Assembly: GCA_963707025.1 (NCBI GenBank)
Contig: CAVPOM010000005.1
Coordinates: 128,001 to 192,000, forward strand
DNA: 64,000 nucleotides
Direction: 5' to 3'
DNA from: an uncultured Verrucomicrobiae bacterium
GTDB taxonomy: Bacteria > Verrucomicrobiota > Verrucomicrobiia > Limisphaerales > Palsa-1400
Shown here: positions 10,180 through 29,326 of the stretch, piece after piece
How the letters are laid out: the number at the start of each line of letters is the position of its first letter
Position numbering within the stretch: the first letter of the stretch is position 1
Translations under genes and position numbers: made by a program
The notes under the pieces: model-generated
What the model was told of the DNA's origin: nothing
What the model saw: only the letters and a program-made list of their open reading frames with translations
Databases searched by the model: none

Positions 10180-10387
10180 CCCATCATAGGCGCTGATGCG
10201 GCGGAGCTTCAACGGGGCCGCGCCCGCGCGGGCGCGGAATGCTCTCTTGCAGCCTTTGACACCGTGCTATTGACGCCGCGCTTCAACGGGGCCGCGCCCG
10301 CGCGGGCGCGGAATGCCTTCGCATTGGGAAAATCCCAGTTCAGTATGTTATTGCTTCAACGGGGCCGCGCCCGCGCGGGCGCGGAAT

Positions 10388-10425
10388 GGCCCTCTGCGGC
10401 GTCCAGCCGCAGAGGGCCTTGTTTT
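10388..10425 (+). terminator. Intrinsic-terminator-like hairpin formed by CRISPR spacer 3
   Basis: Perfect 13-bp stem GGCCCTCTGCGGC/GCCGCAGAGGGCC, 5-nt loop GTCCA, followed by TTGTTTT. Confidence 0.55.
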
Positions 10426-10622
10426 GCTTCAACGGGGCCGCGCCCGCGCGGGCGCGGAATGCCAAGTCGCCCCGTTGTTCGCAATCTCGACAAGCTCTTG
10501 CTTCAACGGGGCCGCGCCCGCGCGGGCGCGGAATGGTGGATCGTCAACCCAGCCGCGCTTATGGGCGCTTCGCTTCAACGGGGCCGCGCCCGCGCGGGCG
10601 CGGAATGACCGTTATTCCCTAG

Positions 10623-12289
10623 CAGCCTGTCGGACTTAGGCGGGAGAATAAATTGACGGAGTTTGAATTGACTGGCGGTTTGAGCAGTCAATGCAAGGCA
10701 TGCCTGCGCGATTCGTCACCATTGATTACGATACGCCCCTGCTTTTGCCTCCGAACCTGCGCGACTGGGTGCCGGTGGGTCACTTGGCCCACTTCATCCT
10801 GGACGTAGTCGAGGAGTTGGATTTGCGTCAGGTTCGGGTCAACGAGCGGGGCACTGGGAGTGAGCAGTATCCGCCGCCGATGCTGTTGGCGCTGTTGCTC
10901 TACTGCTATGCCACCGGGGTATTTAGCTCGCGGCGTATTGAGCAAGCCACTTTGGACAGCGTGCCGGTGCGGATGATCTGCGGGGATACGCATCCGGACC
11001 ACGACACGATTTGCACGTTTCGGCGGGAGAACAAGGCCTTGGTGCAGGAGAGCTTCGTGCGCGTGTTGGAACTGGCCCAAGCGTTGAAGTTTCTGCAGGT
11101 GGGCCAGATCACCGTGGCGGTGGATGGGACCAAGGTGCTGGCCAACGCCAGCAAGCACGCGGCGGTCAGTTATGAGCATGCGGGCAAGACGATCCAGCAG
11201 TTGGAATTAGAGGTCAAAGAACTGCTGGCCAAAGCGGAGCAGGCCGACAGCACGCCGCTGGAAGAGGGGTTGACGATTCCGCAAGAAGTGCAACGGCGGC
11301 AAGAGCGCAAGGCCAAGCTGGCGGCGGCGCGGGCCGAGATTGAAGCGCGGGTCAAAGCCCGAGCAGCGGCGGAGATGGCCGAATACCAGGCCAAATTGGC
11401 CGAAAGGGAGGCCCAAAAAGACCGGGGAGAGAAGCCGCGCGGCCCTGAACCCAAGGCCCCCAGCTCAGAGCCCAAGCCTTCCGAGCAGTATAACTTTACC
11501 GACCCGCAGAGCCGGATCATGAAGGCGGGCAACGGCCAGCATTTTGAACAGAGTTACAATGCGCAGGCGGCCGTGGAGGTGGATAGCCGGTTGATTGTGG
11601 GCCAGCGGGTCAGCCAAGCGCCCAACGATAAACAGGAGTTGGTTCCCACCCTGAAGACCATTGCCTCACCGGTGGAGTCGGTGGCCGCGGTATTGACCGA
11701 CAGCGGATTTTACAGCGAAGCGGCGGTCCAGGCCGTGGAACGAACAGGCGAAGCTCAGCCTACTGGCACGATTGTCTATGCGGCAGTCGAGAAAAAGGAG
11801 CACCATCGCACCGTGGGCGATCTGGAGCGAAAGCCGGAGTCCGACGCACCGGGGCCGCAGGCCAGCACCAGCGAGGTGATGAAACACCGGCTGCGCACGG
11901 CGCAGGGTCGAGCCAGATACAAATTGCGGCAGCAGACGGTGGAACCGGTGTTTGGGATCATCAAGAGCGTCTTGGGCTTTCGACAGTTCCTGTTGCGAGG
12001 TCTGCAGAAAGTGGAGTTGGAATGGCAGTTGGTCTGCCTGGCCTATAACCTCAAACGGCTACATCGGATGGGCGCAAAGCTTCCCGGCGGCGGGATAAAA
12101 GTCGAACGCAGACCCCACCGGCTCGGCCAAGCACTCCGCCGAGAAGCTCCAGGGAAATCTTCAGAGGGTGAAAAAGCCGGCGAAATTGAGACAAAAGAAA
12201 TTGTTGCTTCTTTTTGAACACAATCCCGCTGCCGCCCGTCTCATTTGGATTCCTCAACAGCCAAAGTCAAATTCCAGTCCGACAGGCTG
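10623..12289 (+). mobile_element. IS1182-family insertion sequence with 14-bp terminal inverted repeats and CTAG target duplication
   Basis: IR CAGCCTGTCGGACT (10623-10636) / AGTCCGACAGGCTG (12276-12289), flanked by CTAG at 10619-10622 and 12290-12293. Removing it restores a 37-bp spacer. Confidence 0.93.
10691..12217 (+). CDS. IS1182-family DDE transposase (C-terminal tail possibly extended by a frameshift)
   Basis: LLLPPNLRDWVP.GHLA, YPPPMLLALLLY, SSRRIE, PDHDTI..FR, VDGTK, TDPQSRIM, YNAQAAV, DSGFYS, VEPVFG.IK. Confidence 0.93.
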   Translation: MQGMPARFVTIDYDTPLLLPPNLRDWVPVGHLAHFILDVVEELDLRQVRVNERGTGSEQYPPPMLLALLLYCYATGVFSSRRIEQATLDSVPVRMICGDTHPDHDTICTFRRENKALVQESFVRVLELAQALKFLQVGQITVAVDGTKVLANASKHAAVSYEHAGKTIQQLELEVKELLAKAEQADSTPLEEGLTIPQEVQRRQERKAKLAAARAEIEARVKARAAAEMAEYQAKLAEREAQKDRGEKPRGPEPKAPSSEPKPSEQYNFTDPQSRIMKAGNGQHFEQSYNAQAAVEVDSRLIVGQRVSQAPNDKQELVPTLKTIASPVESVAAVLTDSGFYSEAAVQAVERTGEAQPTGTIVYAAVEKKEHHRTVGDLERKPESDAPGPQASTSEVMKHRLRTAQGRARYKLRQQTVEPVFGIIKSVLGFRQFLLRGLQKVELEWQLVCLAYNLKRLHRMGAKLPGGGIKVERRPHRLGQALRREAPGKSSEGEKAGEIETKEIVASF

Positions 12290-14011
12290 CTAGGGAGCCG
12301 CACAACATCACAGACGCTTCAACGGGGCCGCGCCCGCGCGGGCGCGGAATGGACCCGCCAGTGGCGCAAGGCCGGACTGGCGCGTTAGATGCTTCAACGG
12401 GGCCGCGCCCGCGCGGGCGCGGAATGATGCCGGCAGTCGAACGCCTTCCGCGCTCATCGACGCTTCAACGGGGCCGCGCCCGCGCGGGCGCGGAATGGAA
12501 TGCGAGCGAGCATGTGACGAGCATGGCAAGCTTCAACGGGGCCGCGCCCGCGCGGGCGCGGAATGGCGATCGGCGCCATCGCCCATCTCGCATTGGCATG
12601 GCTTCAACGGGGCCGCGCCCGCGCGGGCGCGGAATGTACGGTGCCAATATTTCAACGGACGGCCACGCGGCCATGGACAGTATGCTTCAACGGGGCCGCG
12701 CCCGCGCGGGCGCGGAATGCGGTCCGTCGCGGCCCTGCCCAATCATCGCCGAAGCTTCAACGGGGCCGCGCCCGCGCGGGCGCGGAATGCCGCGCAGCAT
12801 CCGCCAGCCGCGCCCGTGCCGGTAATGCTCCGCTTCAACGGGGCCGCGCCCGCGCGGGCGCGGAATGGACGTCGCACGCAGTTGACGCCGGCCGCCGGCG
12901 CGATGACGCGAATGCGCAGTGCTTCAACGGGGCCGCGCCCGCGCGGGCGCGGAATGCGTCTGACGCGTGGCTACTGGCGAGCAGGACGCGTGCAGGCTTC
13001 AACGGGGCCGCGCCCGCGCGGGCGCGGAATGCCGGTCGACGGCTGCGCGCCTAGACAGCTCGCCGCAGCTTCAACGGGGCCGCGCCCGCGCGGGCGCGGA
13101 ATGATGCTGCGCGCCAAGGCCGACGATCCGCAGCTCATGGTGCTTCAACGGGGCCGCGCCCGCGCGGGCGCGGAATGCGAGGCAGCCAGCATCGGTCGCA
13201 TCAGCCGCAGCCTGGCGCTTCAACGGGGCCGCGCCCGCGCGGGCGCGGAATGCGCGCCGTCGCATGCTCGACGCTGCATGCCGCATCGCTTCAACGGGGC
13301 CGCGCCCGCGCGGGCGCGGAATGCGACGCCATCGTCGCGGCGCATGCGTCACCTGCGCTTCAACGGGGCCGCGCCCGCGCGGGCGCGGAATGTGTCGAAG
13401 TGCGCCAGCGCGGCTTCAACGGGGCCGCGCTCGCGCGGGCGCGGAATGCTGCGATGGGCAGCCTGCACGCTTCAACGGGGCCGCGCCCGCGCGGGCGCGG
13501 AATGGCCGACCGTGTCGACTGGCCAGCCGTGGCGGACGCTTCAACGGGGCCGCGCCCGCGCGGGCGCGGAATGATGCCTCGCCACGCGAGCACGCCGCGC
13601 CACGTCAAGGCTTCAACGGGGCCGCGCCCGCGCGGGCGCGGAATGTACGTGGACGGCCGCTGGACATCAGCGCTCGATAGTGAGCTTCAACGGGGCCGCG
13701 CCCGCGCGGGCGCGGAATGCAGCGCTGCGGCATGCCTCGCCAGCCGGCGACCGTCTCGCCGGCTTCAACGGGGCCGCGCCCGCGCGGGCGCGGAATGCGA
13801 ATGGCTGGCCGCGGCCAGCGCAGTGGCCAAGCTGCTTCAACGGGGCCGCGCCCGCGCGGGCGCGGAATGCTGGCGCGAGGCCCAGCTGGCGCGCTGCGAT
13901 ACGCGCTTCAACGGGGCCGCGCCCGCGCGGGCGCGGAATGGCAATTGGCTGCTGGCCTTGCGCGCAGGCGGATGCGCTTCAACGGGGCCGCGCCCGCGCG
14001 GGCGCGGAATG

Positions 14012-14215
14012 TTCTCTCTCGTAACTCTTTCCAGCGCAAGCTCGCAACGACTGATTTGCGATTGCCTGCGTCCATTTCGTTTCCATTCTTTTCCTGCTGT
14101 GGATCTGTCTCACACTATTCGTTCAATATCAAGCGTTTACGTCATGCGAGCACCAGCGGGGTTTTCCGCGTCACCTCGCCGCTCGCAGGTTCGATTATCA
14201 AAGAACACCAAAGTC
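14012..14215 (-). promoter_or_regulatory. CRISPR leader with IHF-consensus site and short inverted repeat
   Basis: AT-richer non-coding stretch between the array and cas2. TATCAAGCGTTTA (14127-14139) fits WATCAANNNNTTR. TGCGAGC (14145-14151) / GCTCGCA (14181-14187) form an inverted repeat. Confidence 0.7.
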
Positions 14216-14506
14216 TCACACCACATAACACGGCGCGTCCAGTTTCACATAGGGCAGTCCCAACGCCGTAATTACCCGATCCCCTCGCCCCTCCGCTGGC
14301 CCCAGCCCAACAAAAATTACTTGATCCTCATCGTGGTTGATGATTTCGGTCAAAGCAGATTCCAGTTCAATCTTCTCCGACGGGTTCAGATCGCACTCGA
14401 ACACCGAAAATTGCAGGTGGTCGCCAAAATTGCTGCAAGTCTTGAATACCTTCCGCAACCGTTTGTCGTCTGCAATATCGTAACACACCAAATACGTAGT
14501 TCTCAT
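14216..14506 (-). CDS. cas2: CRISPR-associated endoribonuclease Cas2
   Basis: YLVCYDIADDKRLRKVFK...GDHLQFSVFEC. Confidence 0.95.
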   Translation of the reverse strand: MRTTYLVCYDIADDKRLRKVFKTCSNFGDHLQFSVFECDLNPSEKIELESALTEIINHDEDQVIFVGLGPAEGRGDRVITALGLPYVKLDAPCYVV

Positions 14507-14509
14507 GGG

Positions 14510-16642
14510 TCACCTGGTCAACAATGGAATGTATTCAGCGATTTCGCCGGTCAGGGTTTTTGCCAGCAGTCGCGCCTGCAATTCCAGCGCCCGACGATAG
14601 CTGACTTTGTAGTCGAACAACGGATGCGTGATCAACGAACTCATGCGCTGCTCGTACATCTGGAAAAAGCGCTTCCGCCCGGGTGCGGTCAGATTCACTG
14701 CTTGGCCGGCCCGCACAAAATCCTTTTCCGTGACGACGTGATTGTTGATGCAACTCAACACTGTGGACTCCGCCACCAACGGCCTCATTTCTTCCATCAA
14801 ATCCAACCCCAACGCCGGCCGCCCAAACCGGGGTTGGTGGTAAAACCCAATGTACGGGTCAAAACCGACTGCCAAGGCGGCGAGCGTGCAATCCTTGCTC
14901 AACATGCTATACGCCAGGGAAAGCATCGCGTTGACGGGGTCAGTCGGCGGCCGGCGGTTGCGATTGGTGAAGTTGAAGTTGAACGCAAGTTGTTTGGGAT
15001 CTTTGCCAGGCATTTCGAGGCCGGGCAGGTCGTCTTCCACCTTGATCATGCCGCTGAACTGCTGGAAATACTGGCTCGCAGCGGCCCCCTCGATGCCGAG
15101 GAGTTCCTCGACTGAAGCCGCCGCCAGCGCATCCTCGGATGCCCGCTTCAGTTTCAGGATGATTGGTTCCGGAGGCTCCAGGTGATTGCGCATAAGGAGG
15201 GTGCGGTGGTTGCGGATTTTTCCATGGACAAATCGTCTGGCGAGCGAAAGGCACATCGCCTCATCTCGCGCCAGCCGAAATTGCTCCATCCGCAAGAACA
15301 CATTCTTCAACGAGTGCCCGCGCGTGATGCCGTAAAACCAGCCGCCCATCGAAAAGTAAGTGATCGGGATTTCCTGGTCGCAAAGCGATTGAATGGCCTG
15401 AGTCGAGATCTGGATGTTTCCGAACAGCGCAACATGTGAAAGATCGCGCATCCGCACTTCCTCGATGACCCTGTCCTTTTCTTTGACCGTCAACACCTCG
15501 TCTTTGCATCCCACACGATAACCCTGGGTGTTCAGATAAAGCGGGCGGGTGTCGTCGCGGGCGGCGATCAATCTCCTGGGCGGCTTGCCCGCCACGGCAG
15601 ATTTATCGTCTGGTGCGGACGGATTCTCCAGCAAAGCCGCCTCAAGATCCGGGGGAATTTGCGCCAGCATCCGCGTTTCGTCCGGCAGGCAAACCGGCGC
15701 AAGCGAACACCGCACGCATTTTGGAGAATTGACCAATGGCTTCGGGATTGGCCCGGTGACAATCCGTTTGGCTTCCCCAATGCTTTGCAAAATCCAGCTT
15801 TCCAGTTCGGGCGTGATCGGCAGGCGAACGCGCTGCTTCGCGGCGCGATAATAGATAATGCCATCGTTGCAGGTGTAGCCGTTGTCACGCAGGATGAGCG
15901 CCTGCAATCCAAGCTGCATTTTGTCCGTGTCCCACAGTTCGTTTGCCTCTTCCCCCTCTTTGGGCGCACCCGCCTTGTAATCAACCGGACAGACCTCCAA
16001 CGCGGTGAGCAAATCCCCTTTTTCCGCCTTGGTTTCAACGAGGTCCATCTTTGCCACGACGCCCAACCGCTCTGATCCCATTTGGACGGAACGCGAATGG
16101 ATTGTCTCCGGCTCGGCGTTCTTGGTTTCAGCCTCCTTGCTGGTGGATTCAGTCGCCGCTGATGTCTCCTTTTCCGCACTTGGCTTGTCGGCGTCCGCCT
16201 TCCGCTTGGCTTTTGGCAGGGCGCCGCTGCCCGAATCAACGCGCTGGTGGATCGCGCCTCCCCGCAACGTGTCCGCGCTTTCGACGAAAACCCCCTCGAC
16301 GAATTCGTAATAGAAGAGCCGCTGGCAATACACGAATTCGTTCAGCATCCGCGCCGGAATTTGCTGCGGCTCAGACTCTTGGCGGGAAGGCGATGGCGGA
16401 GACTGAGAGATTGCGGGCGGCGGAGTTTCAACCTGAGCTTGCGCAAGACTGGCCAATTGAGCTTCAACAGCCTCCACCCGCAAAGTTATCTTCATCGGCT
16501 GCGGTTCGTCGGTCTGCCGGCGCAACCCCGGTTGGTCACTGGTTCTTGCGCCGCCTGCTCCGGGAGTAATGCCTCTTGGCACCACGGTTATTTCCGGTTC
16601 TGTCGAACGTGATCCTGCGAGTATTGGTTTTTTTTCGTCCAT
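14510..16642 (-). CDS. cas1: Cas4/Cas1 fusion protein (type I-G style)
   Basis: Cas4 part: NEFVYCQRLFYY, PVDYKAG, PKCVRCSLAPVCLPDE. Cas1 part: LLGIEGAAA, RNRRPPTDPVNAMLS, GFYHQPRFGRPALGLDLMEE. Confidence 0.95.
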   Translation of the reverse strand: MDEKKPILAGSRSTEPEITVVPRGITPGAGGARTSDQPGLRRQTDEPQPMKITLRVEAVEAQLASLAQAQVETPPPAISQSPPSPSRQESEPQQIPARMLNEFVYCQRLFYYEFVEGVFVESADTLRGGAIHQRVDSGSGALPKAKRKADADKPSAEKETSAATESTSKEAETKNAEPETIHSRSVQMGSERLGVVAKMDLVETKAEKGDLLTALEVCPVDYKAGAPKEGEEANELWDTDKMQLGLQALILRDNGYTCNDGIIYYRAAKQRVRLPITPELESWILQSIGEAKRIVTGPIPKPLVNSPKCVRCSLAPVCLPDETRMLAQIPPDLEAALLENPSAPDDKSAVAGKPPRRLIAARDDTRPLYLNTQGYRVGCKDEVLTVKEKDRVIEEVRMRDLSHVALFGNIQISTQAIQSLCDQEIPITYFSMGGWFYGITRGHSLKNVFLRMEQFRLARDEAMCLSLARRFVHGKIRNHRTLLMRNHLEPPEPIILKLKRASEDALAAASVEELLGIEGAAASQYFQQFSGMIKVEDDLPGLEMPGKDPKQLAFNFNFTNRNRRPPTDPVNAMLSLAYSMLSKDCTLAALAVGFDPYIGFYHQPRFGRPALGLDLMEEMRPLVAESTVLSCINNHVVTEKDFVRAGQAVNLTAPGRKRFFQMYEQRMSSLITHPLFDYKVSYRRALELQARLLAKTLTGEIAEYIPLLTR

Positions 16643-16645: not shown

Positions 16646-18061
16646 TCACCTTCCAGCCGCCACACAGGAGTCGTGCCATGCCCTGATGCCCTTGATCACG
16701 CGCCGATGTTTAACAGCCTTGATTGTTCGATTAAGCCGCGCCGCAATTTCCTGGTCCGGCCCCGTTCCCAGCAGGGAATCTTCATCGGGCCGCCAGGCCG
16801 GTGCCGCCCTCCGCACACTCAGAATGCCCCTTTTGCCCCGGGCGCGACGGACGGTGGCCAAAGAATGTCCCGTGCGGCGAACGATTTCCTCGTCCGGCAA
16901 TTCTCCCAGTAATGACAATTCGTTGGGTTTCCAGATTTCGTAGTGGGGATTGCAGAACGGAATACCCAGGTTGAGCCGCTTATCACGCACATTTGCCAGC
17001 GACCGGTTGACCAGCTTGCCCACTTCCCGGTCTGGACGGGTGCCAAGCAACGCAATCTCCTCCTTCGTCCAATGCCGGTTATTGGGATTGTTGTTCGGCA
17101 ACCCGAGCAACCACCGCCGCCGGCGGACCCTCGACAGGGAATAGCCCAGCCTGCGCGCCACTTCTTCGTCTGTGAACTTGCCCAGCAACGCGTCCTCTTC
17201 CTCCGTCCAAGTGATATAACGTGCCCCCGGTTTGGCACGCACCCCGTTCACCGGTTGCCTTCCACGACCATCAGGCGCGACGAGCTTGACGATTTTGAAC
17301 ACAGCATCCGGCTTGGTCCGGCCCAATGCACAGCGGCGCGCTTCCACCGCTTGAAACGTGCGCCCAAACGCGAGCGCCAGTTCCTTGTCCGGCTTCGAGC
17401 CGAGTAATGCTTCCTCCTCCGGCGTCCACGGACGAGACCTGTATTTGGGCGGGATGCCCAGCTTTTTGCGCCGCCAACCCACATTCGTCAGGCTACGGCC
17501 GAGAAGCATGGCGACCTCACGATCGTTGCGCATTCCGAGAATCCAGTCGTCTTCCGGACGCCAATCCTTTTTCACCCGGATGCGCTTCTTCCAACGGCGA
17601 TGCCGCACCGTACTGACCGGACGGCCAAACTTCCGGGCCAGCACCTTGTCCGGCTGCGTCCCCAGCAACCGATCCTCCTCCTGTGTCCAGTCCGGCTGCT
17701 TTTGCCTCGCCTTGCCGCCGGCCAACTGGAGTCGCATTTTGCAAACCCGTTCGTGGCTCCAGCCGAGGATGGCGCGCAGTTCCCGGTTTGATTTCGTGGC
17801 GAACAAATGCGAGTAATGATCCTGCGGCTCCCGTTCCATGCGAAAGGGCTGCGGCGCATGTCCAACCGCTCGTTTTCCGAGCAATTGGCGCCGGTCCCGC
17901 ACGCCAAGCAACGTGCGATGCAGCTTTTCCGTCACTTCGCGGTCGGTCAATTTGCCGAGCAACGCATCCTCCTCCTTTGTCCACGGAAACTGCCGCGTCG
18001 AACGAAGCCCCTCTTCCTGGCCGATTTTCCGCTGCGGACGGGGTGGAGGCGGGGCTTTCAT
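16646..18061 (-). CDS. Tandem Myb/SANT-like HTH repeat protein (9 units of about 44 aa)
   Basis: Repeated WTxEEDxLLGxxxDxEVAxxLGRSxxxVxxRRxxLG (8 clear units, 1 degenerate). ATGA overlap with the upstream gene. Ends 3 bp before cas4/1. Confidence 0.8.
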   Translation of the reverse strand: MKAPPPPRPQRKIGQEEGLRSTRQFPWTKEEDALLGKLTDREVTEKLHRTLLGVRDRRQLLGKRAVGHAPQPFRMEREPQDHYSHLFATKSNRELRAILGWSHERVCKMRLQLAGGKARQKQPDWTQEEDRLLGTQPDKVLARKFGRPVSTVRHRRWKKRIRVKKDWRPEDDWILGMRNDREVAMLLGRSLTNVGWRRKKLGIPPKYRSRPWTPEEEALLGSKPDKELALAFGRTFQAVEARRCALGRTKPDAVFKIVKLVAPDGRGRQPVNGVRAKPGARYITWTEEEDALLGKFTDEEVARRLGYSLSRVRRRRWLLGLPNNNPNNRHWTKEEIALLGTRPDREVGKLVNRSLANVRDKRLNLGIPFCNPHYEIWKPNELSLLGELPDEEIVRRTGHSLATVRRARGKRGILSVRRAAPAWRPDEDSLLGTGPDQEIAARLNRTIKAVKHRRVIKGIRAWHDSCVAAGR

Positions 18062-18534
18062 ACAGGTAGACTCGTTGATGTTAGCTCTGGCGCTGATCCG
18101 CCTTGCGCGCGCTTGAACATTCCATAATGACGGCGAAGACGGTCAATATAGGCGCGATCCTCAAGGAGAATTTGGCGAAACAACTCCAGCAGCGCCGGAG
18201 ACAGTTTGGACTGCGTATTCAACGGGTCCAGGTCGGCGCTGGCCAACTCCCGCGCGCTCTCGCGGTCGCCGTGCAGCCATTTAGCGTAAAAATCCTCGCT
18301 CTCCCAGCCGTAATTGATCGTGGCCAGAACTTTATTGGGCCGGTCAGCGCGGCAGACCTGAAAGAGGACGCGCCGGCAGTCGCAAGTCGGCTCATTGCAA
18401 TACAATTCCAGAAACCCATATTCGCCGGCGGGCAACCCGGCGTGGGGTTCCAGGAGCCTGATCGTGCGCGTCTCGCGCGCCGCCAACTCTGGGAAACGCG
18501 AGAAAAACGGGGCCATGTGTGCAAGAGGCTTCAT
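18058..18534 (-). CDS. Hypothetical protein with Cys cluster (YCNEPTCDCRRV)
   Basis: Clean 158-aa ORF coupled to both neighbours, with a CxxxxCxC motif. Confidence 0.7.
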   Translation of the reverse strand: MKPLAHMAPFFSRFPELAARETRTIRLLEPHAGLPAGEYGFLELYCNEPTCDCRRVLFQVCRADRPNKVLATINYGWESEDFYAKWLHGDRESARELASADLDPLNTQSKLSPALLELFRQILLEDRAYIDRLRRHYGMFKRAQGGSAPELTSTSLPV

Positions 18535-18540: not shown

Positions 18541-18787
18541 TCACTCGCAAAACAGGCGTCGAAACAACTTCTTCGGACAGTTGCCGGCCTTCCTGAGACA
18601 GCACCACCGATTTGGCCTTCTTTTTCGGATCAGAAATCAGGCCCTTCTTGTGGAGGCGGTCCAGAGCATCCCAATCGTGACTCTTCCACGCCCGGGTAAG
18701 CGCCAATTCGTCCTTTCCCTCGGTAAAGCTGGTCAAATAGAGCAACGCCAGCACCGCGTCATCAATTTTGTCGAGGTTGGGTTTCAT
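18541..18787 (-). CDS. Small DUF6429-like winged-helix protein; frameshift near the 3' end
   Basis: KIDDAVLALLYL...RAWKSHDWDALDRLHKKGLISDPKKKAKSVVLS.EG. The shifted frame ends LFRRLFCE*. Confidence 0.7.
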
Positions 18788-18797: not shown

Positions 18798-19545
18798 TCA
18801 TTGGACGGTTTCCGTGGCAACTGGAACAAACTGGCCAAGACCGAAGTGGCAGGAATGGCCGAGAACGAGGGGGCCGCAGATCGGTTTTTCGGTTTGGAAC
18901 TCAACGGTGAAAGCCAGTCGCCTGGACGGCGAAAGCCTGTTGATTGCGCAGTGTTTAGCGATCCGCACTCGAATATCACCCCATCGAACGATCCGCACTT
19001 CCCGGGGCTTGCAATTTGGAACCTGTTCCAACTCCTGGCACAGTTGGTTTTCTGGTAGGAGATGACGCTTCCCATGTGTTCCCCAAAATTGACGTAGCGG
19101 TACATACGGCGTTGCGCTAATCCAACGAGTCGCAAGTTGCCGGAAACACTGGTCATCTGTGTCGGCAAGTTCCAGGAAAATCCTAGTGGAAGGGCCATTC
19201 CACTGTAGTGCCTTGACAATTCTGAGTGCCTCTATCTCCTCTTTGGAAAACCGCAGATGTGGGTCTCACGAGAACAATTCCGACAATCGCTCCGTCCGCA
19301 GCGGGTTGGGGCAAGTAGAAAGCGTGATGATGGCCCCTATCTGGTTGGCCGTCGGGTTGATGGCCGGTCAACAGAAACGAGTCCTTACTCCCGGTTGTCG
19401 CATGAAAAGCTGATAAGGCCGCTGCGCGAAATGCTTCAGCCACCGCGACGGTAGAACGCACCGGTGGGCGACCCTGAGCGAAGGTGAATCGTACTATTTG
19501 ACCCGAGGGTTGTGTGAATTCTGTGGCCGGTTTGAGAAGGCTCAT
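18798..19545 (-). CDS. csb2: Stand-alone C-terminal (Cas6-like) half of type I-G Csb2, about 248 aa; one frameshift near 19265
   Basis: Frame 1: VAEAFRAAAL...LTGH..DG....HHHAFYLP. Frame 2: RWISATPYV...ICGPLVLGHSCHFGLGQFVP. GGAGGAG RBS upstream and ATG overlapping the cas3 stop. Confidence 0.8.
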
Positions 19546-21854
19546 CGGTTTCTCCTCCATCCTGTCGTTGTGTCGTAGTAATCGGACGAGATTGCCAGCG
19601 GCATGTGAACACAATCAAACCGTTCGTCCGGCTCAATGCTATATGCGTGTTCTCGCGGAATTTCAACCATCCGTTGGGCGATCTCGTTGCGCAGCATCCG
19701 AAGTCGCTTTCTCCGAGTCTGCAAGTCGGCCAGTTCATGGGCCGCTGTCAGTTTCTCCCACACTCGTTGATCCGACTCGTCTGTCTCTACAAAGTGGGCA
19801 ATCCGGTTCGGGGCCTCCTCGATAAGTCGGACGGCTTTCGTGTCCCGATCTCGGTCTTCGCCTTCTCCGCGCAATGCCGCAAACTGCATCATGCGCACAG
19901 CCTCCAGAATCTTCTGCGTCGTGTCCTGTCCCAAACGGGACTCTAATCTCTCAAAATACTGGTTCACGAGACTGCGCAGTTCTGGCTCGCGAAACGAGGT
20001 TCTCCTTTGGAATATCTCGCGTACAAGGCCCGAGTGAACCTGTCCATAGATGACGACTCCGCTGTAGCCTTCCAAATCGAAAACATACACTACCCCACGT
20101 TGACCTGTGCCATGCCGGTTGCAACGCCCGGCAGCTTGGATAATCGCATCCAGGGGAGCTAAAGCCCGGAAAACTACGTCAAACGACAGGTCCACACCGG
20201 CCTCGACCACTTGGGTTGCCACGAGAATATGGGGTTGGCGGCAGGAGTTCACCTGTTTCAATATCTCATTGCGATCCTTGGGGCGCAGATTGGTTGAAAG
20301 GTGAAAGAGCCTGTAACCGCGAAGATCAGGCGCCCTCTTTAACGAAGCGTGTAGTTCAAGGGCTTCCCGTACGGTGTTTAGAATGACCAAACATGAGCAC
20401 TGACTGTTCTTGGACAACTCGCTTACGACGCGGCACGTCAGGTTTTCCATGGACAGCGTAGTAGTGATATCCACGTACATGTCATAGCGGTCAAAGACAC
20501 TCACAAATTCCGCTGGATCAACACCGATTTCCTCCCTCTCCGACTGCGAGAAAAGTGCTGGCTGGGTAGCGGTAACCAACAGAATGTCAGTTCCAAATCG
20601 GTGGCTGAGCGACTGGAGTGCTAATCGCAATACCGGCCATAACTCGGCTGGAAAAGCTTGAACCTCATCCAGAATAAGGATTGCCCCTGCCAACTTGCTA
20701 AACCGCCGGGCATTAGCTGACGTGGCGTGGAACATTGCATTAGCGACCTGCACGAAGGTAGTGCAAACGACATCGGCACGCCAACCCTCCACCCAGCTTC
20801 GAGCCAACGATTCCTCGCCGCTTTGTTCCATCTGACCTAGCTCGGCAAGATGATGGTGAACTGCTATGGCGCTCTCATCAACGGGACCATCTCCCCAAAG
20901 CTTGCGGATGACGGCTACGTTTTGGTCAATAATGCTCGTGAACGGGAGCGCATAGATGACCGGGCAAATACACAGACCCGCCTTGATGCGAGCTTGCCGG
21001 CGAGCCAATGCCCAACCCAGTGCGGCAAGTGTTTTTCCTGCCCCAGTGGGAACGGTCAGAGTCCACAAGTGCCCGGAATTCGCCGGATGATCATTAGCGT
21101 GTGCGACCGCCGAAGCATAAACTCGGTTGCGCGCATCTGCAATCGTAGGTTGCGCCGCCGCGCCAAAACTCCGAGCGCTGCGGAATGCTGCGACGTGTTC
21201 CAACGAGAGTTGCGGCGGAGCGTCGAAGGTTCCAACGGCGTATCGGGCGGCCGAATCACGGTCTGCTTCAATGAGACGGCCAAAGTCGCGCAGCGCCGTT
21301 TGAAAGCGCACCATCGTGTCGCCATCGGAACAGGGTTGACGCAGGGCAATGTTCGCTTTCACCCTAAGTTCAATCAGACCACGCCTGTCCAGCACAGGCC
21401 GGACTACCGGCCCGCCAAGCCGTTCCGCAAACCAACCTGCGATTCCCGTAGCGTCCATCGTTCCGAATTGCTGCTGCAACCGATTCAGAGTGTGCTGATC
21501 GGGGTAGGTGGCCCCATCCAGAAGGTCGTCCAAACTCCCGTGATGGCGACGCACAAAGAGGAAAGCCAGTGCTGCATGAACTGCCATCACGCTTTCCCCT
21601 GAGGAAACAATAGGCTGCAGGAACTGCATCAGCCAAAAAGCTCCAACCTCCGCGTGCCAACGCAGCTCCGGCGACACATTCTCTCCATGCAGATAAGCTT
21701 GGAAAAAGCTGGTACCCTTACCAAGATCGTGGAACAACGCCGCCCAAGCCAGCCAGTAGCCATCACCAACATCGAGCCGGCTCCTCACATCCAGCAGATG
21801 GTCAATCAGCAATCGGCCAGGGTGTGATTCACAATGCGGAAATGCAGGTGCCAT
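19542..21854 (-). CDS. cas3: CRISPR-associated helicase/HD nuclease Cas3
   Basis: HLLDV/FHDLGK HD domain, PTGAGKT, DEVQ, TAT, VATQVVEAGVD, QAAGRCNRHG. Confidence 0.95.
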   Translation of the reverse strand: MAPAFPHCESHPGRLLIDHLLDVRSRLDVGDGYWLAWAALFHDLGKGTSFFQAYLHGENVSPELRWHAEVGAFWLMQFLQPIVSSGESVMAVHAALAFLFVRRHHGSLDDLLDGATYPDQHTLNRLQQQFGTMDATGIAGWFAERLGGPVVRPVLDRRGLIELRVKANIALRQPCSDGDTMVRFQTALRDFGRLIEADRDSAARYAVGTFDAPPQLSLEHVAAFRSARSFGAAAQPTIADARNRVYASAVAHANDHPANSGHLWTLTVPTGAGKTLAALGWALARRQARIKAGLCICPVIYALPFTSIIDQNVAVIRKLWGDGPVDESAIAVHHHLAELGQMEQSGEESLARSWVEGWRADVVCTTFVQVANAMFHATSANARRFSKLAGAILILDEVQAFPAELWPVLRLALQSLSHRFGTDILLVTATQPALFSQSEREEIGVDPAEFVSVFDRYDMYVDITTTLSMENLTCRVVSELSKNSQCSCLVILNTVREALELHASLKRAPDLRGYRLFHLSTNLRPKDRNEILKQVNSCRQPHILVATQVVEAGVDLSFDVVFRALAPLDAIIQAAGRCNRHGTGQRGVVYVFDLEGYSGVVIYGQVHSGLVREIFQRRTSFREPELRSLVNQYFERLESRLGQDTTQKILEAVRMMQFAALRGEGEDRDRDTKAVRLIEEAPNRIAHFVETDESDQRVWEKLTAAHELADLQTRRKRLRMLRNEIAQRMVEIPREHAYSIEPDERFDCVHMPLAISSDYYDTTTGWRRNR

Positions 21855-22546
21855 CAGCTAATCTCCAATAAGCTCTCAAGGAGGCCGCGATAGAACGGCC
21901 CGTGGTGTCCATCACATAAGCCTCGTACCGAGTCACTTCGCGGTTGGGTTGCATCACAGCCGGCAGACGAACCCGCTGATAAACCCCGTCCGCGTTCCAG
22001 TGGATTTCGTCTTGTACGTCATCCGAGCGTACAAGCGAAACGAATTCCCGATGATTCTTGTCGCCGGAGACCTCCTCCGCCTCCACGATTTGCACGCCGT
22101 CTCCGAACCAAGCGATCATCCAGGCGAGTCCCAGGCAGGGGGTGTAGCACGATTCCCCATGTTTTAGCGATTCCGCCAATTGACGAGCGAGGGTCGGATG
22201 ACTGAACATCACCCGGTAGCGTGGCTGTCGCAAGACCTCATACCGCACCGTCGTGCGTGGATTCACCGCTTTGAGGCGAAAGCTCGGATTCTGTTTCGTA
22301 TCCACCAGATTGATGGAGACGTATCCTGTGCGGAGTGGGCTCAGAATCTGTAGAACCGAACACCGCTTCGCTATCTTGGAAGTGTGCGAGTGACTCGTTC
22401 TTCGGCAGGCCAAGCACCGCACCGACCAATCCGCAGAGCGCCGTTCGCGGCGGAACGGGATACGTGAGAGCAGTCGTGATCGCGTATTGCCGCCTAAAGT
22501 GCGCCAAGTCGGACGCCACATCGAAGATGACAAACTCTCGACGCAT
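21829..22546 (-). CDS. cas5: Type I-B Cas5 (Cas5h-like); frameshift near 22355
   Basis: FDVASDLAHFRR.....ALTYPVPPRTALCGLVGAVLG, then EVLRQPRYRV...YTPCLGLA. Confidence 0.88.
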
Positions 22547-22547
22547 C

Positions 22548-23617
22548 TTAATCGAACTCCAGCTTATCGGCTTCCGAACCTAGAAATGTCCATTTGCCGT
22601 CCTGCGCCTGCGGCGGTTGTGACAGCTTTAGAAGGTTGTTCCATGCGAAGCGGATTCGTGCGATTTTGTCTTTTCGCTCCGACAAAACCGTATTTAGATT
22701 TGTCAGGTCCAGCGTGACTTGGGTGACGTCACGCAGCTCTTCATCGCGGATTTCACCATCCCCACTCGCGCTCGGTTTGCCCACGTCCACACCGCCATTC
22801 TTGCCACGCTTGAGGTCTAAGAATCGGTCAGAAACGTCCAATATAGTGCTTTGAATTCGCATCGTTATATTCCACCGATCGGAGCAGAAGAGGCCGCTGC
22901 CCCATCTTGGACCGGGTGATCAGGCTCTTCGTGCCATACCAAATCGCCTCATAGAGCTTTTCCTCATCGCGGCTAGTGAGCATCGTGGCTTCGGCCGCTT
23001 TCTGGTTCACGATTCCATAAATGGCGATCAACCCATACGGCAGTACCGTACTCCTCACGAAACGTCTTCTGTTGCGCGCCTTGCCCGGAGGCGAACGCCC
23101 CCGTTCCTTTGATGAACCTCGGCTCAACGCGATGCAGCGATGTTCCCATGGCGAACTGGGCCGCGCCGGTTAGCGTGACGCTTGAGTCCTTCTCGCCCTC
23201 CTTGAGCTTCGAGACCGGTATCGTGCCGCCGAAAAGACGGACATCAATGCACTGCGCGATGACGCCCGCTTTAATGAGATCACGCTTTTGGAGGACGCTC
23301 TTCGCGTTCGCTTTCGCCTCTTTAGAGAGTTGGCTGAAAAAATCCTCTGACCGGTCCTTGCCGTCCTGTATCGTCCCGTCCTCCTTTTCGATCTGGCGGC
23401 AAAAGATTTCCTCTCCGCCATAAGCCCGCAAGTAGTCGCGGATCGTCCGTTTCAAACGGACATCGGACACCTTGGCTCTTCCGGATTCCAAATCCATTCT
23501 CGGCCGGTTCTCGTCATTCGGATCGCCATTCGGATTTGCGTCGGCGATGTCGTACACAAATAGGATCTCAGTGCGTGTCGTGATGTGTCCTGGTTCCTCT
23601 GCTGTTGTTGCATTCAT
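22548..23617 (-). CDS. cas7: Type I-B Cas7 (Csh2-like); two frameshifts at about 23050 and 22870
   Basis: EILFVYDIADANPNGDP..ENRPRMD......VSDVRLKRTIRDYL, DVRLFG, TGAAQFAMG.SLH, LYEAIWYGT...TRSKMGQRP. Confidence 0.9.
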
Positions 23618-23634
23618 GATGTTTGATTCTCCGT

Positions 23635-25566
23635 TCACTGGGGTTGGCTGGTTGGGTTTTCGTCAGCATCCTTCGCGAAACGTGGCCGCAAAGCATGGCC
23701 CAACGTAAAGAAATAGGAAATCTCATCTGGCGAGAGCGGCCACTGGTCTGGTGTCGCTGCAAGGGCGGCCGCGGCACACTCCAATAAGCCGCTTACTTTT
23801 CGCTCCTGCTCAATTCCGTATGCCTTTGCCTTGTCCATAGCCGCGACAAACAGACCCTGCACATCCGAGCGATCTATGCGAAACCCCTTCAGTTTTCCCG
23901 AAAAAGGAGTCGCGCCTCGCATGTGCGCCTGTATTTGTTCAATCCGGCTGCAACATGCACCCACTAGGAATGCCGCTTGCGGCGCGGGATCAGTTCGCAG
24001 CTTTCCCGACGCTTGGTCGAGGACCTTGCGCACTCGGTTGGCTTGGTCAGAATCACCATAATCAACTTGCATATTTTGTTCTCTCCTCTCTGTATCTGGG
24101 TTGGTCAATGTTTCGAAAAACAAAATTGTGCGAAACAAATCTGCGAGACGAAACTGCCACGCCTTGCCTGCCCGATAGTCGTCCTGAACCCATCGCATAC
24201 CGACTTGAAGCAGCCGACGGGTCGAAAACTCCCGCAGTTCCAAGGCTGCCCGTGTGGCGGCCAAGAAATCGTTATCAAAATTGCTGCCTCCATGGGCGGC
24301 TGGGAATACGTTGCGGAGAGAACCGAAGGTGAATTGGCCGTTCGCGAATGAACCCGGGCTTGATGCATTGAGCCATGGATGGCGATCCACGCGGCTTTTG
24401 GCTTCAAATAGCTCTCGGAACCGAGTCGGCAAAAGCCCGGAGACATATAACGCAGGACGGAACGACTGTGGATCCGGTTGATAAAACAGCAAGTCCACTT
24501 GCAGTAGATTCTTCTCTTGCGACACAACGTAAAACAACTCGTCCTCGGCCGCGGTCAACCGTGCCTGTGCAGTCTTGTTGATCCGCGCATTTATCAGACG
24601 GTCCAAGAACTGGTACGCCATCGTTGGCGTAGGCAGTACAGGTGATGGCAAGAGCAGATACTTGAAACCGTAGTAATCAAAATTCAACTCTTTCTTCACG
24701 CGCTCCCCTGCGAAATCCACTTTGTCGCAGCATTCCCTACAGGCTGGGAAGTTGCGCCAAGCCCCGGATGGATCAAACCCGCCTGACACCGAGCCTGGCT
24801 TGTCCAACGTGTAGAGCTTGAATTGCTGGATTTGCAGTAGGCCCGAAACTTCCGTGTTCGTCTTCCCGCAGATACTGCATTGCCCAATTCCCTGCACTGC
24901 GCCCTTGATGCCCTTCTTCGTTGTCGCGGACTCCTTCCCGGACCGCACCAAGGACTGCTGAAACGTGTCGAAGTCGCCGACGTGTCTTAACGGCTCCTTT
25001 TCTTCCTGCCACGCAACCGAAATAATTGCGGGTTGGGAAACAATCGATTTCTTTTTCGCCACAGGGGGGTTGTACCGTTGGATCTGATCGCGTAGCGCCA
25101 CACGCTTTGCCGTGCTTGATTCGTCATTTGCATTTGCCGAATCCAACCACTCTCGAATCTTTCCAAGCGTCTTGGTCTCTGGTCCAGGGAGATTTACGCC
25201 TCTATCAACCGCATCCCGAATGCTTTCCGACAAACGGACCAGTTTCTTTCTGATTTCCTCTAATAGTGCTGCTTGATACTTCGCGTCGGTATCTCCTTTT
25301 GCGGCCCGCAATCCGGATGTTGGCGTCGCATCCCAACCGTTCGGCGGCCCTTCCCGGTAGAGGTAGGCTCGGCGTTTAACTGGATCGCATTCCTCGACCT
25401 GAATCCGCTGGAAGCCTTTGCCGGAGAAAATCAACAGGAGCACAGTTTTTGTCCGGAATTTCGCCACCGGGTCACGCATATATTGCGCAACCGGGTCGCC
25501 AGCCCCTTTTCCGAGTCCTTCCCGATCCCGGTAAAACGCCCCGAGTTCGGCAAACTGATGGATCAT
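23635..25566 (-). CDS. cas8b: Type I-B large subunit Cas8b (Csh1/TM1802-like)
   Basis: CSICG and FKLYTLDKPG..SGGF...AWRNFPACREC Zn-binding signature, YLLLP, helical C-terminal domain (AFLVG, ISYFFTLG). First gene of the cas operon. Confidence 0.85.
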   Translation of the reverse strand: MIHQFAELGAFYRDREGLGKGAGDPVAQYMRDPVAKFRTKTVLLLIFSGKGFQRIQVEECDPVKRRAYLYREGPPNGWDATPTSGLRAAKGDTDAKYQAALLEEIRKKLVRLSESIRDAVDRGVNLPGPETKTLGKIREWLDSANANDESSTAKRVALRDQIQRYNPPVAKKKSIVSQPAIISVAWQEEKEPLRHVGDFDTFQQSLVRSGKESATTKKGIKGAVQGIGQCSICGKTNTEVSGLLQIQQFKLYTLDKPGSVSGGFDPSGAWRNFPACRECCDKVDFAGERVKKELNFDYYGFKYLLLPSPVLPTPTMAYQFLDRLINARINKTAQARLTAAEDELFYVVSQEKNLLQVDLLFYQPDPQSFRPALYVSGLLPTRFRELFEAKSRVDRHPWLNASSPGSFANGQFTFGSLRNVFPAAHGGSNFDNDFLAATRAALELREFSTRRLLQVGMRWVQDDYRAGKAWQFRLADLFRTILFFETLTNPDTERREQNMQVDYGDSDQANRVRKVLDQASGKLRTDPAPQAAFLVGACCSRIEQIQAHMRGATPFSGKLKGFRIDRSDVQGLFVAAMDKAKAYGIEQERKVSGLLECAAAALAATPDQWPLSPDEISYFFTLGHALRPRFAKDADENPTSQPQ

Positions 25567-25936
25567 CTTGACCGCCTCCCTTTCTCAGCACACACAATAA
25601 GCCTTCGTTGGCAGCCGAGTTGCTCATGGCCTGTCGCGCCATCGAAAAAACGGTCGAAGCCCGGCGAGTTCATCGCTCACCGCCTTCCCCGACTTCACTC
25701 TCAAGATGTCCGATCCTGAATTGCATGAAATCACCTTATTCGCGCCAAAGTGGGACCCGCATTGGGTCATTTCCCGGCGTGGTTTTATCCTTGTATCAGA
25801 ACGACTTGCGGAATGCGAGCATAAAAATGACGGTTTGCAGCATTATTCAAGAGACGCTGATTTGCCGCACGGTTCATGCATCATTCCAGAGGTGGCGCTT
25901 GCCGTTCTTGGCCACAAGTTTCAAAATCAGCGCACG

Positions 25937-28123
25937 GTGCAAAACACAGCCACACCACTGCCGGAGAGCCTTTCGGGGCTGATCGAGCGCGTCACGTTTT
26001 TCGACGAGGACGGCGGATTCGGTGTGCTCAAGGTCAAAGCCCAGGGGCACCGTGACCTGGTGACCGTGGTCGGCTCCCTGCCGTCCGTCAGCGCCGGGGA
26101 ATGGCTCACGGCCCAGGGCCGCTGGGTTCAGGACCGGGAATATGGGCAGCAGTTCCGGGCCGAGATGCTGACCAGCACGCCGCCGACCAGCAAGGAAGGC
26201 ATCGAGAAATACCTGGGCAGCGGCATGGTTAAGGGCATCGGGCCCGTTTACGCCAAGAAGCTCGTGGACAGATTTGGCGAGGGTGTTTTTGACATTATTG
26301 AGAAGGCGTCTGCCCGCCTGGAGGAGGTGGACGGTATCGGCCCAAAGCGCCGGAAACGAATCAAAGCGGCCTGGGACGAACAAAAGGTCGTCCGGGACAT
26401 CATGCTTTTCCTCCACTCCAACGGCGTCAGCACCAGCCGGGCCGTGCGCATTTACAGGACGTATGGCGAGGCCGCCATTGAGAAGGTCCGCAACGACCCG
26501 TACCGACTGGCCAAGGACATTCACGGCATTGGTTTCAAGACTGCCGACCAAATTGCGCGGAAGGTAGGCATCCCGGTAGATTCGCTGGTCCGCGCCTGCG
26601 CCGGATTAAACCACGTTTTGCTGGAGGCAACCGGTGACGGCCATTGTGCCCTGCCGGTGGAACTGCTCAAGGACAAGGCCGGAAAGCTCCTGTTGGTGGA
26701 GGAGAAGATCGTGGCCGACGCTTTGGAGCGCACGGTGGCCAGCAACGATCTGGTCAAGGAAACGATCAACGGGCAGGAGTTGGTTTTCCTGCCGCACCTG
26801 AAACGGGCGGAGGAAATAGTCGCGGACAGGATCAGGAGTCTCGCCAGATCGCCTTCATCCTTCCCACCAATTGACTTCGAGAAGGCGGTCGTGTGGTGTC
26901 AGCAGAAAACCGGCAAGGAGCTTGCCCCAAGCCAGCGGGATGCGCTCAAGCTGGCCCTGACGAGTCGAGCCTTGGTCATTACGGGCGGGCCGGGGACTGG
27001 CAAAACGACCCTCCTTAACTCCATTCTGCTGATTCTGCGGGCAAAGAAAGTGCGGTGTTTGCTCTGCGCGCCCACGGGCCGGGCGGCCAAACGACTTTCC
27101 GAGGCGACCGGCGTGGAGGCCAAGACGATCCACAGGCTGCTTGAAGTCCAGTCCGCCGCAGGCCGTTTTGCCCGAAACGAGGCTAATCCTCTGGACTGTG
27201 ATGCCCTTGTTGCGGACGAGGTCTCTATGATTGACGTTGTTCTCATGGCGAATCTGCTCCGTGCCTTGCCGGCGAAGGCCAGCCTGCTGCTGGTGGGCGA
27301 CATCGACCAATTGCCTTCCGTGGGGCCTGGCATGGTATTGCGGCATGTGATCGAAAGCAAAGTCGTGCCGGTAGTGCGGTTGACCGAGGTCTTCAGACAG
27401 GTGGCCCACAGCCGGATCATCGCCACCGCCCACCGAATAAATGGAGGACGGATGCCGGAGGTTCCCGGCAAGGAAACCGATTCTGATTTCTATTTCATCG
27501 ACCGAGCGGAGCCGGGGCAGATTGCGGACACGCTGGTCGAGATGGTCAAGACGCGCATCCCGGCCAAATTCCGGCTTGACGCTATTCGGGACATCCAGGT
27601 GCTCTGCCCGATGAACCGGGGATCACTGGGAGTCCGCGAATTGAATGTCCGGCTCCAGAATGAACTCAATCCTGCCCGCGCCGATGAGCCGGTCGTGGAG
27701 AAATTCGGCTGGCATTTCCGTCCCCGGGACAAAGTAATCCAGACCGAGAACGATTATGACAAAGACGTGTTCAATGGCGACATTGGGCAGGTCGTGAAGA
27801 TCGACCCAGTTGAACGGGATGTCACAATCCGGTTCGACCAGCGGGAGGTGGTTTACGATTTCGGAGAACTTGATGAAGTCTCGCTTGCCTACGCCATCAC
27901 CATTCATAAATCGCAAGGATCGGAGTTCCCGGCCGTGGTCATCCCGTTGGCAACGCAGCAATACCTGCTTTTGCAGCGCAACCTCGTTTACACGGGGATT
28001 ACCCGGGGCAAGAAGCTGGTCGTGCTCATCGGTCAGCGAAAGGCGCTGGGGATGGCGGTGCGAAATAACCGGACGGAAAATCGGTTCTCTGGACTGCTGG
28101 CGCGCCTACTCACACCGGGCTAA
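25937..28123 (+). CDS. recD2: ATP-dependent RecD2-like DNA helicase
   Basis: SGLIERVTF, YLGSG.VKGIGP, HhH motifs, TGGPGTGKTT, APTGRAAKRL, TIHRLL, GDIDQLPSVG, YAITIHKSQGSEF. GTG at 25937 is preferred over the ATG at 25706. Confidence 0.93.
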   Translation: MQNTATPLPESLSGLIERVTFFDEDGGFGVLKVKAQGHRDLVTVVGSLPSVSAGEWLTAQGRWVQDREYGQQFRAEMLTSTPPTSKEGIEKYLGSGMVKGIGPVYAKKLVDRFGEGVFDIIEKASARLEEVDGIGPKRRKRIKAAWDEQKVVRDIMLFLHSNGVSTSRAVRIYRTYGEAAIEKVRNDPYRLAKDIHGIGFKTADQIARKVGIPVDSLVRACAGLNHVLLEATGDGHCALPVELLKDKAGKLLLVEEKIVADALERTVASNDLVKETINGQELVFLPHLKRAEEIVADRIRSLARSPSSFPPIDFEKAVVWCQQKTGKELAPSQRDALKLALTSRALVITGGPGTGKTTLLNSILLILRAKKVRCLLCAPTGRAAKRLSEATGVEAKTIHRLLEVQSAAGRFARNEANPLDCDALVADEVSMIDVVLMANLLRALPAKASLLLVGDIDQLPSVGPGMVLRHVIESKVVPVVRLTEVFRQVAHSRIIATAHRINGGRMPEVPGKETDSDFYFIDRAEPGQIADTLVEMVKTRIPAKFRLDAIRDIQVLCPMNRGSLGVRELNVRLQNELNPARADEPVVEKFGWHFRPRDKVIQTENDYDKDVFNGDIGQVVKIDPVERDVTIRFDQREVVYDFGELDEVSLAYAITIHKSQGSEFPAVVIPLATQQYLLLQRNLVYTGITRGKKLVVLIGQRKALGMAVRNNRTENRFSGLLARLLTPG

Positions 28124-28485
28124 TGCCCGCCAGTGACCGTGTAACCGGCCCGGCGCAAATCCTCCGCCAAGTCCTTTTCCATCTGCGTGGCAGCCTCATA
28201 CGGCATCGGGTTCAGGTGCTCATACAATTCCGGCAGAAGGCGGAGGCCGTAGCGTTTGACCACCGCGGCTGCTTTGGTTCCCGCCTTATGGTTGGCGAAA
28301 CGTTCCTCCGGGGTCAGCCCTGTCATCCCAACGTAGATGCAGGTTTTCTTGGGATTGCGCTTCGGGTTTTCGGCACGAACTTTTCGCATTTTGCAGACCG
28401 CCGGCTCAAGCAGCACGACGTAAACATTGTGATGGTGCTCCGGCAGTTGGCCGGGGCGGAGTCGCTTGAGCGTTCGACGCTTCAT
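28120..28485 (-). CDS. GIY-YIG-like small protein
   Basis: VYVVLL...IYVGMTG..PEERF..HK.G pattern. Confidence 0.65.
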   Translation of the reverse strand: MKRRTLKRLRPGQLPEHHHNVYVVLLEPAVCKMRKVRAENPKRNPKKTCIYVGMTGLTPEERFANHKAGTKAAAVVKRYGLRLLPELYEHLNPMPYEAATQMEKDLAEDLRRAGYTVTGGH

Positions 28486-28557
28486 TCGGCATCCATCGGG
28501 AAATCTGGTTCGTCGTCATCCAACCTAAATTAATTCCGTCCACCATAAGCACGGCAA

Positions 28558-29323: not shown

Positions 29324-29326
29324 GCG

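Follow-up and report, generated by a model that had tools for sequence, protein, structure and literature searches.

The window analyzed here, a 64,000-nt stretch of DNA from an uncultured Verrucomicrobiae bacterium, contains a CRISPR-Cas operon in which a gene for a protein of tandem helix-turn-helix (HTH) units, called REP in the following, is located directly before the fused cas4/cas1 gene (cas4/1). This arrangement raises the question whether REP is an ancillary factor of the CRISPR-Cas system, acting on the repeat, the leader or the cas promoter, or whether it is cargo of the element that carries the system. In the direction of transcription, the order is cas8b(TM1802)-cas7-cas5-cas3, a Csb2-type cas6, DUF6429, orf158, REP, cas4g/1g and cas2, followed by the leader and the array (Table 1).

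Table 1. Positions of REP, its units and the surrounding features in the window.
Feature	Position	Strand	Evidence or remark
CRISPR array, 30 copies of a 36-bp I-G-type repeat	10206..14011	-	
DDE transposase gene, interrupts the CRISPR array	10691-12217		
I-G leader, 205-211 bp layout alike with or without REP	14012..14215	-	
cas2	14216..14506	-	
cas4g/cas1g fusion, type I-G adaptation	14510..16642	-	NF049935, 700 bits, above cut-off
REP, nine-unit tandem HTH protein, 471 aa	16646..18061	-	Open ORF, AlphaFold2, relatives, dN/dS
REP units 6-9, residues 285-458	16688..17209	-	Unit alignment, model
REP linker, residues 248-284, modeled at low confidence; basic ends conserved, middle variable	17210..17320	-	Model, alignment
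REP units 1-5, residues 27-247	17321..17983	-	Unit alignment, model
REP unit 2, divergent, without W	17720-17827	-	Unit alignment, model
orf158, small protein with a Cys motif, outside the named families, coupled to REP; optional, also occurs without REP	18058..18534	-	
DUF6429, an optional gene of the slot, one extra base in assembly	18541..18787	-	
Stand-alone Cas6, Csb2 C-terminal type, one extra base in assembly	18798..19545	-	TIGR02165 weak, C-terminal piece
Type I-B interference genes cas8b(TM1802)-cas7-cas5-cas3, swapped into I-G element	19542..25566	-	
Element backbone: recD2, small GIY-YIG, DUF6210, HTH protein	25706..31677	-	Further copies in same genome
Small GIY-YIG-like gene of element	28120-28485		E 0.0016, below cut-off

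The open reading frame encodes a very basic protein (pI 10.97; 103 K+R against 57 D+E), the units of which start at residues 27, 79, 125, 167 and 212 and, after a 37-aa linker following unit 5, at residues 285, 331, 377 and 423, with a spacing of 42-52 aa. AlphaFold2 modeling with 65 sequences yielded nine three-helix bundles connected by low-confidence linkers (mean pLDDT 76.5, pTM 0.30), and a single unit modeled alone reached a pLDDT of 86.6. Unit 2 lacks the leading W, yet has the same fold as the other units, and four of the units are also detectable as repeats at the DNA level (family D5 of the repeat scan). The start of REP overlaps the stop of the upstream 158-aa gene by 4 nt and its stop lies 3 nt ahead of the cas4/1 ATG; REP is translationally coupled to cas4g/1g. 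A sequence-only reading of the window had described a 471-aa, very basic protein with nine units arranged 5+4, the sequences of its nine putative recognition helices and both gene junctions, and all of this was recovered on re-examination, and the DNA-binding tandem HTH anatomy proposed there is supported by the nine predicted bundles. A protein search covering lengths of 259-825 aa yielded 209 relatives, among them 62 near-full-length ones at 56-95% identity, of which those with a name belong to the Verrucomicrobiota. The median pairwise dN/dS was 0.17 for REP (311 pairs) vs 0.10 for cas4/1 (79 pairs), and these values indicate a real gene under purifying selection. Near-identical contigs cover parts of REP in two metatranscriptome studies, which is a weak indication of expression as contigs from RNA runs may be DNA.

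The units had been labeled as Myb-like. A Myb/SANT repeat is about 52 aa long and has three regularly spaced Trp or other aromatic core residues; in the closer-spaced REP units, the first W is conserved and the later core positions are occupied by L/F and R. The label therefore applies only loosely, since the three-helix HTH is present, but only the first of the three W is kept and the Pfam Myb profile PF00249 scores 19.7 bits, below its gathering score of 24.4. With either the complete model or a single unit as query, Foldseek found nothing in the PDB at E<=0.001, the PDB sequence search returned nothing useful, no NCBIfam family matched, and PADLOC reported only a weak mad1 HTH row. The best solved structural match was the DNA-binding domain of GcrA at a middling level (Z 5.9, rmsd 1.8, 43 aligned), which also came out on top in a second comparison (5yiu; Z 4.7, rmsd 1.3, 37 aligned, again middling), with c-Myb, WER and SNAPC4 among the weak structural rows. 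GcrA and Myb/SANT domains share with REP a three-helix bundle starting with W-T-x-E, whereas the REP units are shorter, contain only the first Trp and are not accompanied by a sigma-binding domain. REP is thus neither a true Myb repeat nor GcrA and is only loosely D5-like (PMC13405049).

The closest named relative of REP is the DNA-binding arm of a phage homing endonuclease. The GIY-YIG homing endonuclease YP_007877424.1 of Vibrio phage helene 12B3 is composed of a GIY-YIG domain at residues 1-85 and a C-terminal arm of HTH units with the same tandem pattern as REP (W..E..LLG..D..hA..hG....V...R..LGI), and REP aligns to this arm with an hhalign probability of 98.6% and 38% identity over 173 columns. 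Unlike the phage enzyme, REP has nine units, lies in the cas operon of a bacterial element and contains no nuclease: the whole protein consists of units and linkers, and Pfam assigns HTH families only. Binding arms of homing endonucleases are described (PMC3664794, PMC5009752) as recognizing extended sites in a sequence-tolerant manner.

How REP might read DNA was deduced from an alignment of GcrA residues 3-45 to unit positions 1-37, a mapping which rests on the middling structural match. According to PMC5887438, R33, N34, I37, G38, H41 and R42 of GcrA contact bases, and W3, T32 and K39 contact the backbone. The equivalents of the base-contacting residues, unit positions 25, 26, 29, 30, 33 and 34, form the least conserved class in REP, with an entropy of 1.80 bits vs 1.32 for other surface positions and 0.45 for basic/backbone positions; at the equivalents of R33, N34, I37, G38 and R42, which read the bases and m6A in GcrA, the residues are mixed and drifting. 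The pN/pS values from 11 non-overlapping pairs of living sequences follow the same order, with 0.47 for the base-contact equivalents, 0.35 for other surface positions, 0.09 for basic/backbone positions and 0.07 for the core. The variable positions of helix 3 are under relaxed purifying selection (pN/pS 0.34-0.77, the upper value at unit position 26), no position exceeds 1, and the backbone-gripping arginines are invariant. An exception within helix 3 is position 27, which is conserved in a unit-specific manner (pN/pS 0.11); the same holds for a few other residues, among them the W of unit 4 and the R of unit 6, and some units may therefore read bases. The earlier reading had taken the variation of helix 3 between units as a hint at a zinc-finger- or TALE-like modular code. 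Such a code is not supported: a survey of unit number revealed near constancy, with all nine units retained in order in 55 of 65 orthologue rows, and the base-facing positions drift while the backbone residues stay invariant. This pattern of neither a fixed nor a diversifying code would fit an avid, tolerant mode of binding.

The system at 18798-25566 is a hybrid, in which an I-B cascade with cas3 and a stand-alone Csb2-type cas6 is combined with repeats and adaptation genes of type I-G. Two independent short-read runs lack the frameshifts at about 18567, 19264, 22354, 22831 and 23046; the breaks seen in cas7, cas5, cas6 and DUF6429 come from single extra bases in the assembly, and decay of the interference genes was rejected on these grounds. 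Up to five partial copies of the element backbone are present in the genome (window, contigs C4, C8 twice, C15), and CRISPR-Cas systems are present in two of these; they use the same repeat and have no spacer in common. The I-G system of the sister element on C4 is a plain one: its cas4/1, 85% identical, directly abuts csb2, and REP is absent. Six other loci with a 96-100% identical REP have both flanks in common with the window, and each contains a different I-G interference block; in the seven loci together (window, L007, L009, L026, L043, L046 and L047; L numbers denote the fetched loci), the flanks are 86-97% identical around seven interference blocks, one of them I-B. The boundaries of the swap (18830-25630 in the window) are the start of the cas3 region and the 3′ end of csb2/cas6. 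Since near-identical loci differ in their interference blocks, REP belongs to a constant DUF6429-orf158-REP-cas4/1-cas2 block and not to the effector. DUF6429 and orf158 persist through the same seven swaps, so little can be concluded from the retention of REP alone.

Linkage to cas genes was assessed for 55 orthologue loci, of which L037 (42% identity) was below the identity filter and eight were too short, leaving 46. Among these informative loci, 36 are cas-linked, one lies beside a lone repeat and nine are unlinked, in records that are not independent of each other, as many come from one peat population. Most REP orthologues are thus found in cas loci, as for a CRISPR ancillary gene; the homologue survey suggested in the sequence-only reading yielded enrichment at cas loci, and the opposite outcome, which together with a lack of sequence-specific DNA binding would have made REP passenger cargo, was not seen. 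In L037, REP sits directly after csb2. Of the nine unlinked records, four retain the beginning of cas4/1 as a remnant, three of these representing a single locus. Two copies with seven units adjoin a TrwC relaxase, another record is a stub, and the remaining two are complete in length, one of which has only 230 bp of downstream DNA. Together with the lone-repeat record, five non-cas-linked records retain a cas4/1 start remnant or a repeat. REP and cas4/1 have broadly congruent trees, apart from some recombination, and REP is co-inherited with the cas4/1-cas2 block. As seen from cas4/1, a REP orthologue is held by 6 of the 67 genomes with cas4/1 at >=55% identity (401 genomes of the order searched), and REP is located upstream in 3 of the 30 best cas4/1 loci, one of which had no upstream DNA, vs DUF6429 in 3 and orf158 in 2. 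The distribution of REP on a quickly built cas4/1 tree is patchy, with 7 changes, at least 5 of them forced, and broken or shortened copies occur in L004, L006, L028, L039/40 and L041. REP is thus conserved, but optional and dispensable, and it shares its slot with DUF6429 and orf158, which are equally optional; neither point was noticed in the sequence-only reading.

Two arrangements are suggestive of a role at the repeat or leader. In L004, REP lies between cas1 and cas2, and in L085 a lone I-G repeat without a recognizable leader (L085:9017; G051 C1:336000) is found about 320 bp after an intact REP. The genome containing L085 (G051) is near-complete and lacks this cas4/1, and the lone repeat is the only I-G repeat found in it; the arrangement may equally be a deletion scar.

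Some loci differ further in their surroundings. In L010 (781-10774), REP-cas4/1 is followed by a Cas_APE2256 gene with no cas2 in between, and the genes after it look like type III-B cmr. In L086 (8700-10800) and L023, a seven-unit REP lies between direct repeats of about 220 bp from the region upstream of trwC, which are 72% identical and suggest that this REP copy was captured by the relaxase element.

The unit family as a whole is considerably wider than REP. It is present in 63 of the 401 genomes of the order, a paralogue query found it in only 1 of 300 genomes from elsewhere in the phylum, and 6389 representatives match it at E<=0.001, with 3-16 units per protein in the family loci examined; viral contigs contained just 3 distant relatives. 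For 111 relatives scanned, the best 25 of 32 Pfam families were almost all HTH and included no nuclease family. The slot before cas4/1 is occupied by REP together with one or two paralogues in L013, L027, L028 and L037 and by a paralogue alone in L138, at least three other subfamilies having entered it at these loci. In one of these, a second subfamily (L013:4946-6559, L138:3343-4932, L037:6316-7539), seven HTH units follow a conserved but unnamed domain of about 180 aa at the N-terminus. Two further paralogues lie directly before cas12b (L092, L167), and a direct search of cas12b showed that 1 of 18 loci has a paralogue within 1.5 kb. At L092:8407-11330, L096:10453 and L167:7251-7944, the repeat genes are flanked or followed by short pieces that copy the 5′ end of cas12b, as if insertion at the cas12b start duplicated the 5′ end of this gene. 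Among 76 listed paralogue loci, from which 49 weaker matches were left out, to which one cas1 was added and in which kin are not independent, 4 lie within 10 kb of cas1 vs 0.31 expected, with the other 72 farther away, and 5 lie within 10 kb of TrwC vs 0.60 expected, so that the enrichment beside TrwC relaxases is about as strong as that near cas1. The family favors mobile and defense DNA in general, and the REP clade is one that settled at cas4/1.

The reading to which we give about even chances is that REP is a nuclease-less, sequence-tolerant DNA binder with a long footprint and optional defense cargo of the adaptation block. REP would be expressed with the operon, and each unit would dock its third helix into a successive major groove, so that the chain could coat about 35-45 bp, a footprint estimated by allowing about 4-5 bp per Myb-like unit, with high avidity and a loose sequence preference. 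Acting as a chromatin-like occluder, it might dampen or shield DNA of the element or of invaders, being neither required by the Cas enzymes nor tuned to them, and like DUF6429 and orf158 it would ride in the slot that directly precedes cas4/1 in a mobile type I-G element. Against this stands that the link to cas exceeds what a random passenger needs: besides the 36 of 46 linked loci, the five records with a cas4/1 start remnant or a lone repeat, the at least three other subfamilies in the same slot and the two paralogues directly before cas12b have to be accounted for, as well as the unit-specific conservation of position 27, of the unit 4 W and of the unit 6 R.

In the main alternative explanation, REP would be a bacterial Cbp-like factor on the 36-bp repeat or the leader, its nine units covering a long, substitution-tolerant site at about 4 bp each and tuning either transcription of the array or leader-end integration by Cas4/1-Cas2. 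Cbp1 and Cbp2 consist of tandem HTH units with basic linkers and bind CRISPR repeats (PMC3597662, PMC10883916). They resemble REP in the beads-on-a-string arrangement and in that each unit is nearest its counterpart in other species (PMC3597662), but they are archaeal, have 2-3 units and are encoded away from cas, whereas REP is bacterial, operon-embedded and optional. The fold of Cbp2 (2lvs) matches REP weakly (Z 3.8-4.1) and sequence homology to it was not found, as the PDB search gave no match at E<=1 and the profile three unrelated weak rows; REP is Cbp-like in architecture, but it is not a member of Cbp1/Cbp2. In favor of this explanation, REP stays with the adaptation block and array through the seven interference swaps and broadly shares its tree with cas4/1, it lies between cas1 and cas2 in L004 and close to the sole I-G repeat found in the L085 genome, paralogues recur at I-G and V-B loci, both of which use Cas4/1, and PMC10274657 suggests a host factor for I-G Cas4/1. 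The I-G repeats compared share only their 3′ half, and a tolerant recognition would fit this. On the other hand, the 10 leaders from REP-positive loci follow the same layout of 205-211 bp as the 22 from REP-negative ones, a single leader being longer, and no REP-specific motif was found in them; an identical repeat is found with and without REP, and neither a REP-specific feature of the repeat nor covariation with repeat or leader was detected. Binding to the repeat, the leader or the cas promoter, as the earlier reading had envisaged, therefore gains no support from these comparisons, in which all three are alike with and without REP. In addition, about 9/10 of such systems do without REP, DUF6429 and orf158 come through the same swaps, and 72 of the 76 paralogues lie beyond 10 kb of cas1. 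We regard a Cbp-like role as a tentative possibility that is rather unlikely, and the same applies to the wider proposal that Cas4/1-Cas2 modules of Limisphaerales (I-G, V-B) repeatedly domesticated nuclease-stripped HTH arrays of the homing-endonuclease type as bacterial counterparts of Cbp1, which would bind long, substitution-tolerant sites in the repeat or leader, tune integration or array transcription and remain with the adaptation block when effectors are exchanged. Cargo is somewhat more likely for REP than a counterpart of the archaeal CRISPR-repeat binders.

A third explanation, in which REP would regulate transcription of the cas operon or the element from an operator situated ahead of the first cas gene or in the recD2-cas interval, is doubtful. 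It would suit an HTH array lying inside the operon and coupled to it, and the recD2-cas intergenic region remains unchanged while the effector genes vary. The PHROG 323 profile ('D5-like regulator') matches REP in 5 stretches at E 1.9e-44, a D5 of a Vibrio phage is among the viral fold matches, and T5 D5, like REP a DNA-binding protein with several HTHs, is annotated as affecting transcription; however, T5 D5 itself is a weak match (hhalign 6% over 35 columns, with a single-sequence target) and is an analogue or very distant kin of REP. The base-reading positions drift, and the aligned parts of the upstream region reach 83-87% identity in the sister element that lacks REP. No REP-specific motif was found ahead of the first cas gene, and a comparison of the flanks (400 bp) of 24 repeat genes revealed no shared motif beyond element-specific homology, no common element ends and no shared operator. 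A promoter/terminator scan of 16400-19300 gave chance levels only.

TALEs and C2H2 zinc-finger arrays are tandem modular DNA binders as well. That REP is a programmable reader of this kind, with a per-unit code and arrays re-shuffled toward new targets, would agree with helix-3 residues differing unit by unit and with the range of unit numbers in the wider family, but is very unlikely given a different fold, the nine units in order in 55 of 65 rows, no sign of re-shuffling among orthologues and variable positions that are neither fixed nor above a pN/pS of 1. Just as improbable is a split homing system, in which REP would anchor a separate nuclease such as the GIY-YIG-like gene of the element and thereby aid its own spread, as suggested by the fusion of REP-type units to GIY-YIG in phages, by that stand-alone gene and by the patchy spread of REP with at least 5 forced changes, because the gene is also present in three or more REP-less backbone copies, the best 25 of 32 Pfam families of the 111 relatives include no nuclease, and REP and cas4/1 mostly descend together.

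Literature searches found no description of REP or of a bacterial tandem-HTH CRISPR ancillary protein; the word 'Myb' does not occur in the searched text of the preprint on CRISPR-linked genes (10.1101/270033) and of the 2025 classification (PMC12669027), the supplements of which could list the family by cluster number. Should REP bind the repeat or the leader, the locus itself would encode a bacterial equivalent of Cbp1 or IHF/HU, and REP would become a candidate host factor of the kind that has been proposed for I-G Cas4/1. As cargo, too, REP opens up a large, unstudied family of natural HTH arrays of 3 to 16 units. Near-identical elements with and without REP in one genome provide a ready control.

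A few further observations were made at this and related loci. The leader-side spacers of the array in the window (12316-14011) are GC-rich, mostly 0.66-0.79, have uneven lengths of 20-53 nt and thereby differ from the distal ones; they may be long-read artefacts. The spacers of both arrays of this genome (28 and 35) matched nothing notable in the genome or in the fetched loci. About 10 copies of a unit of about 370 bp at 33700-38100 are probably repeated domains of a large secreted protein. In L009, a reverse-oriented mini-array of two repeats (L009:2795-2867) is located just upstream of cas3 and could be regulatory.
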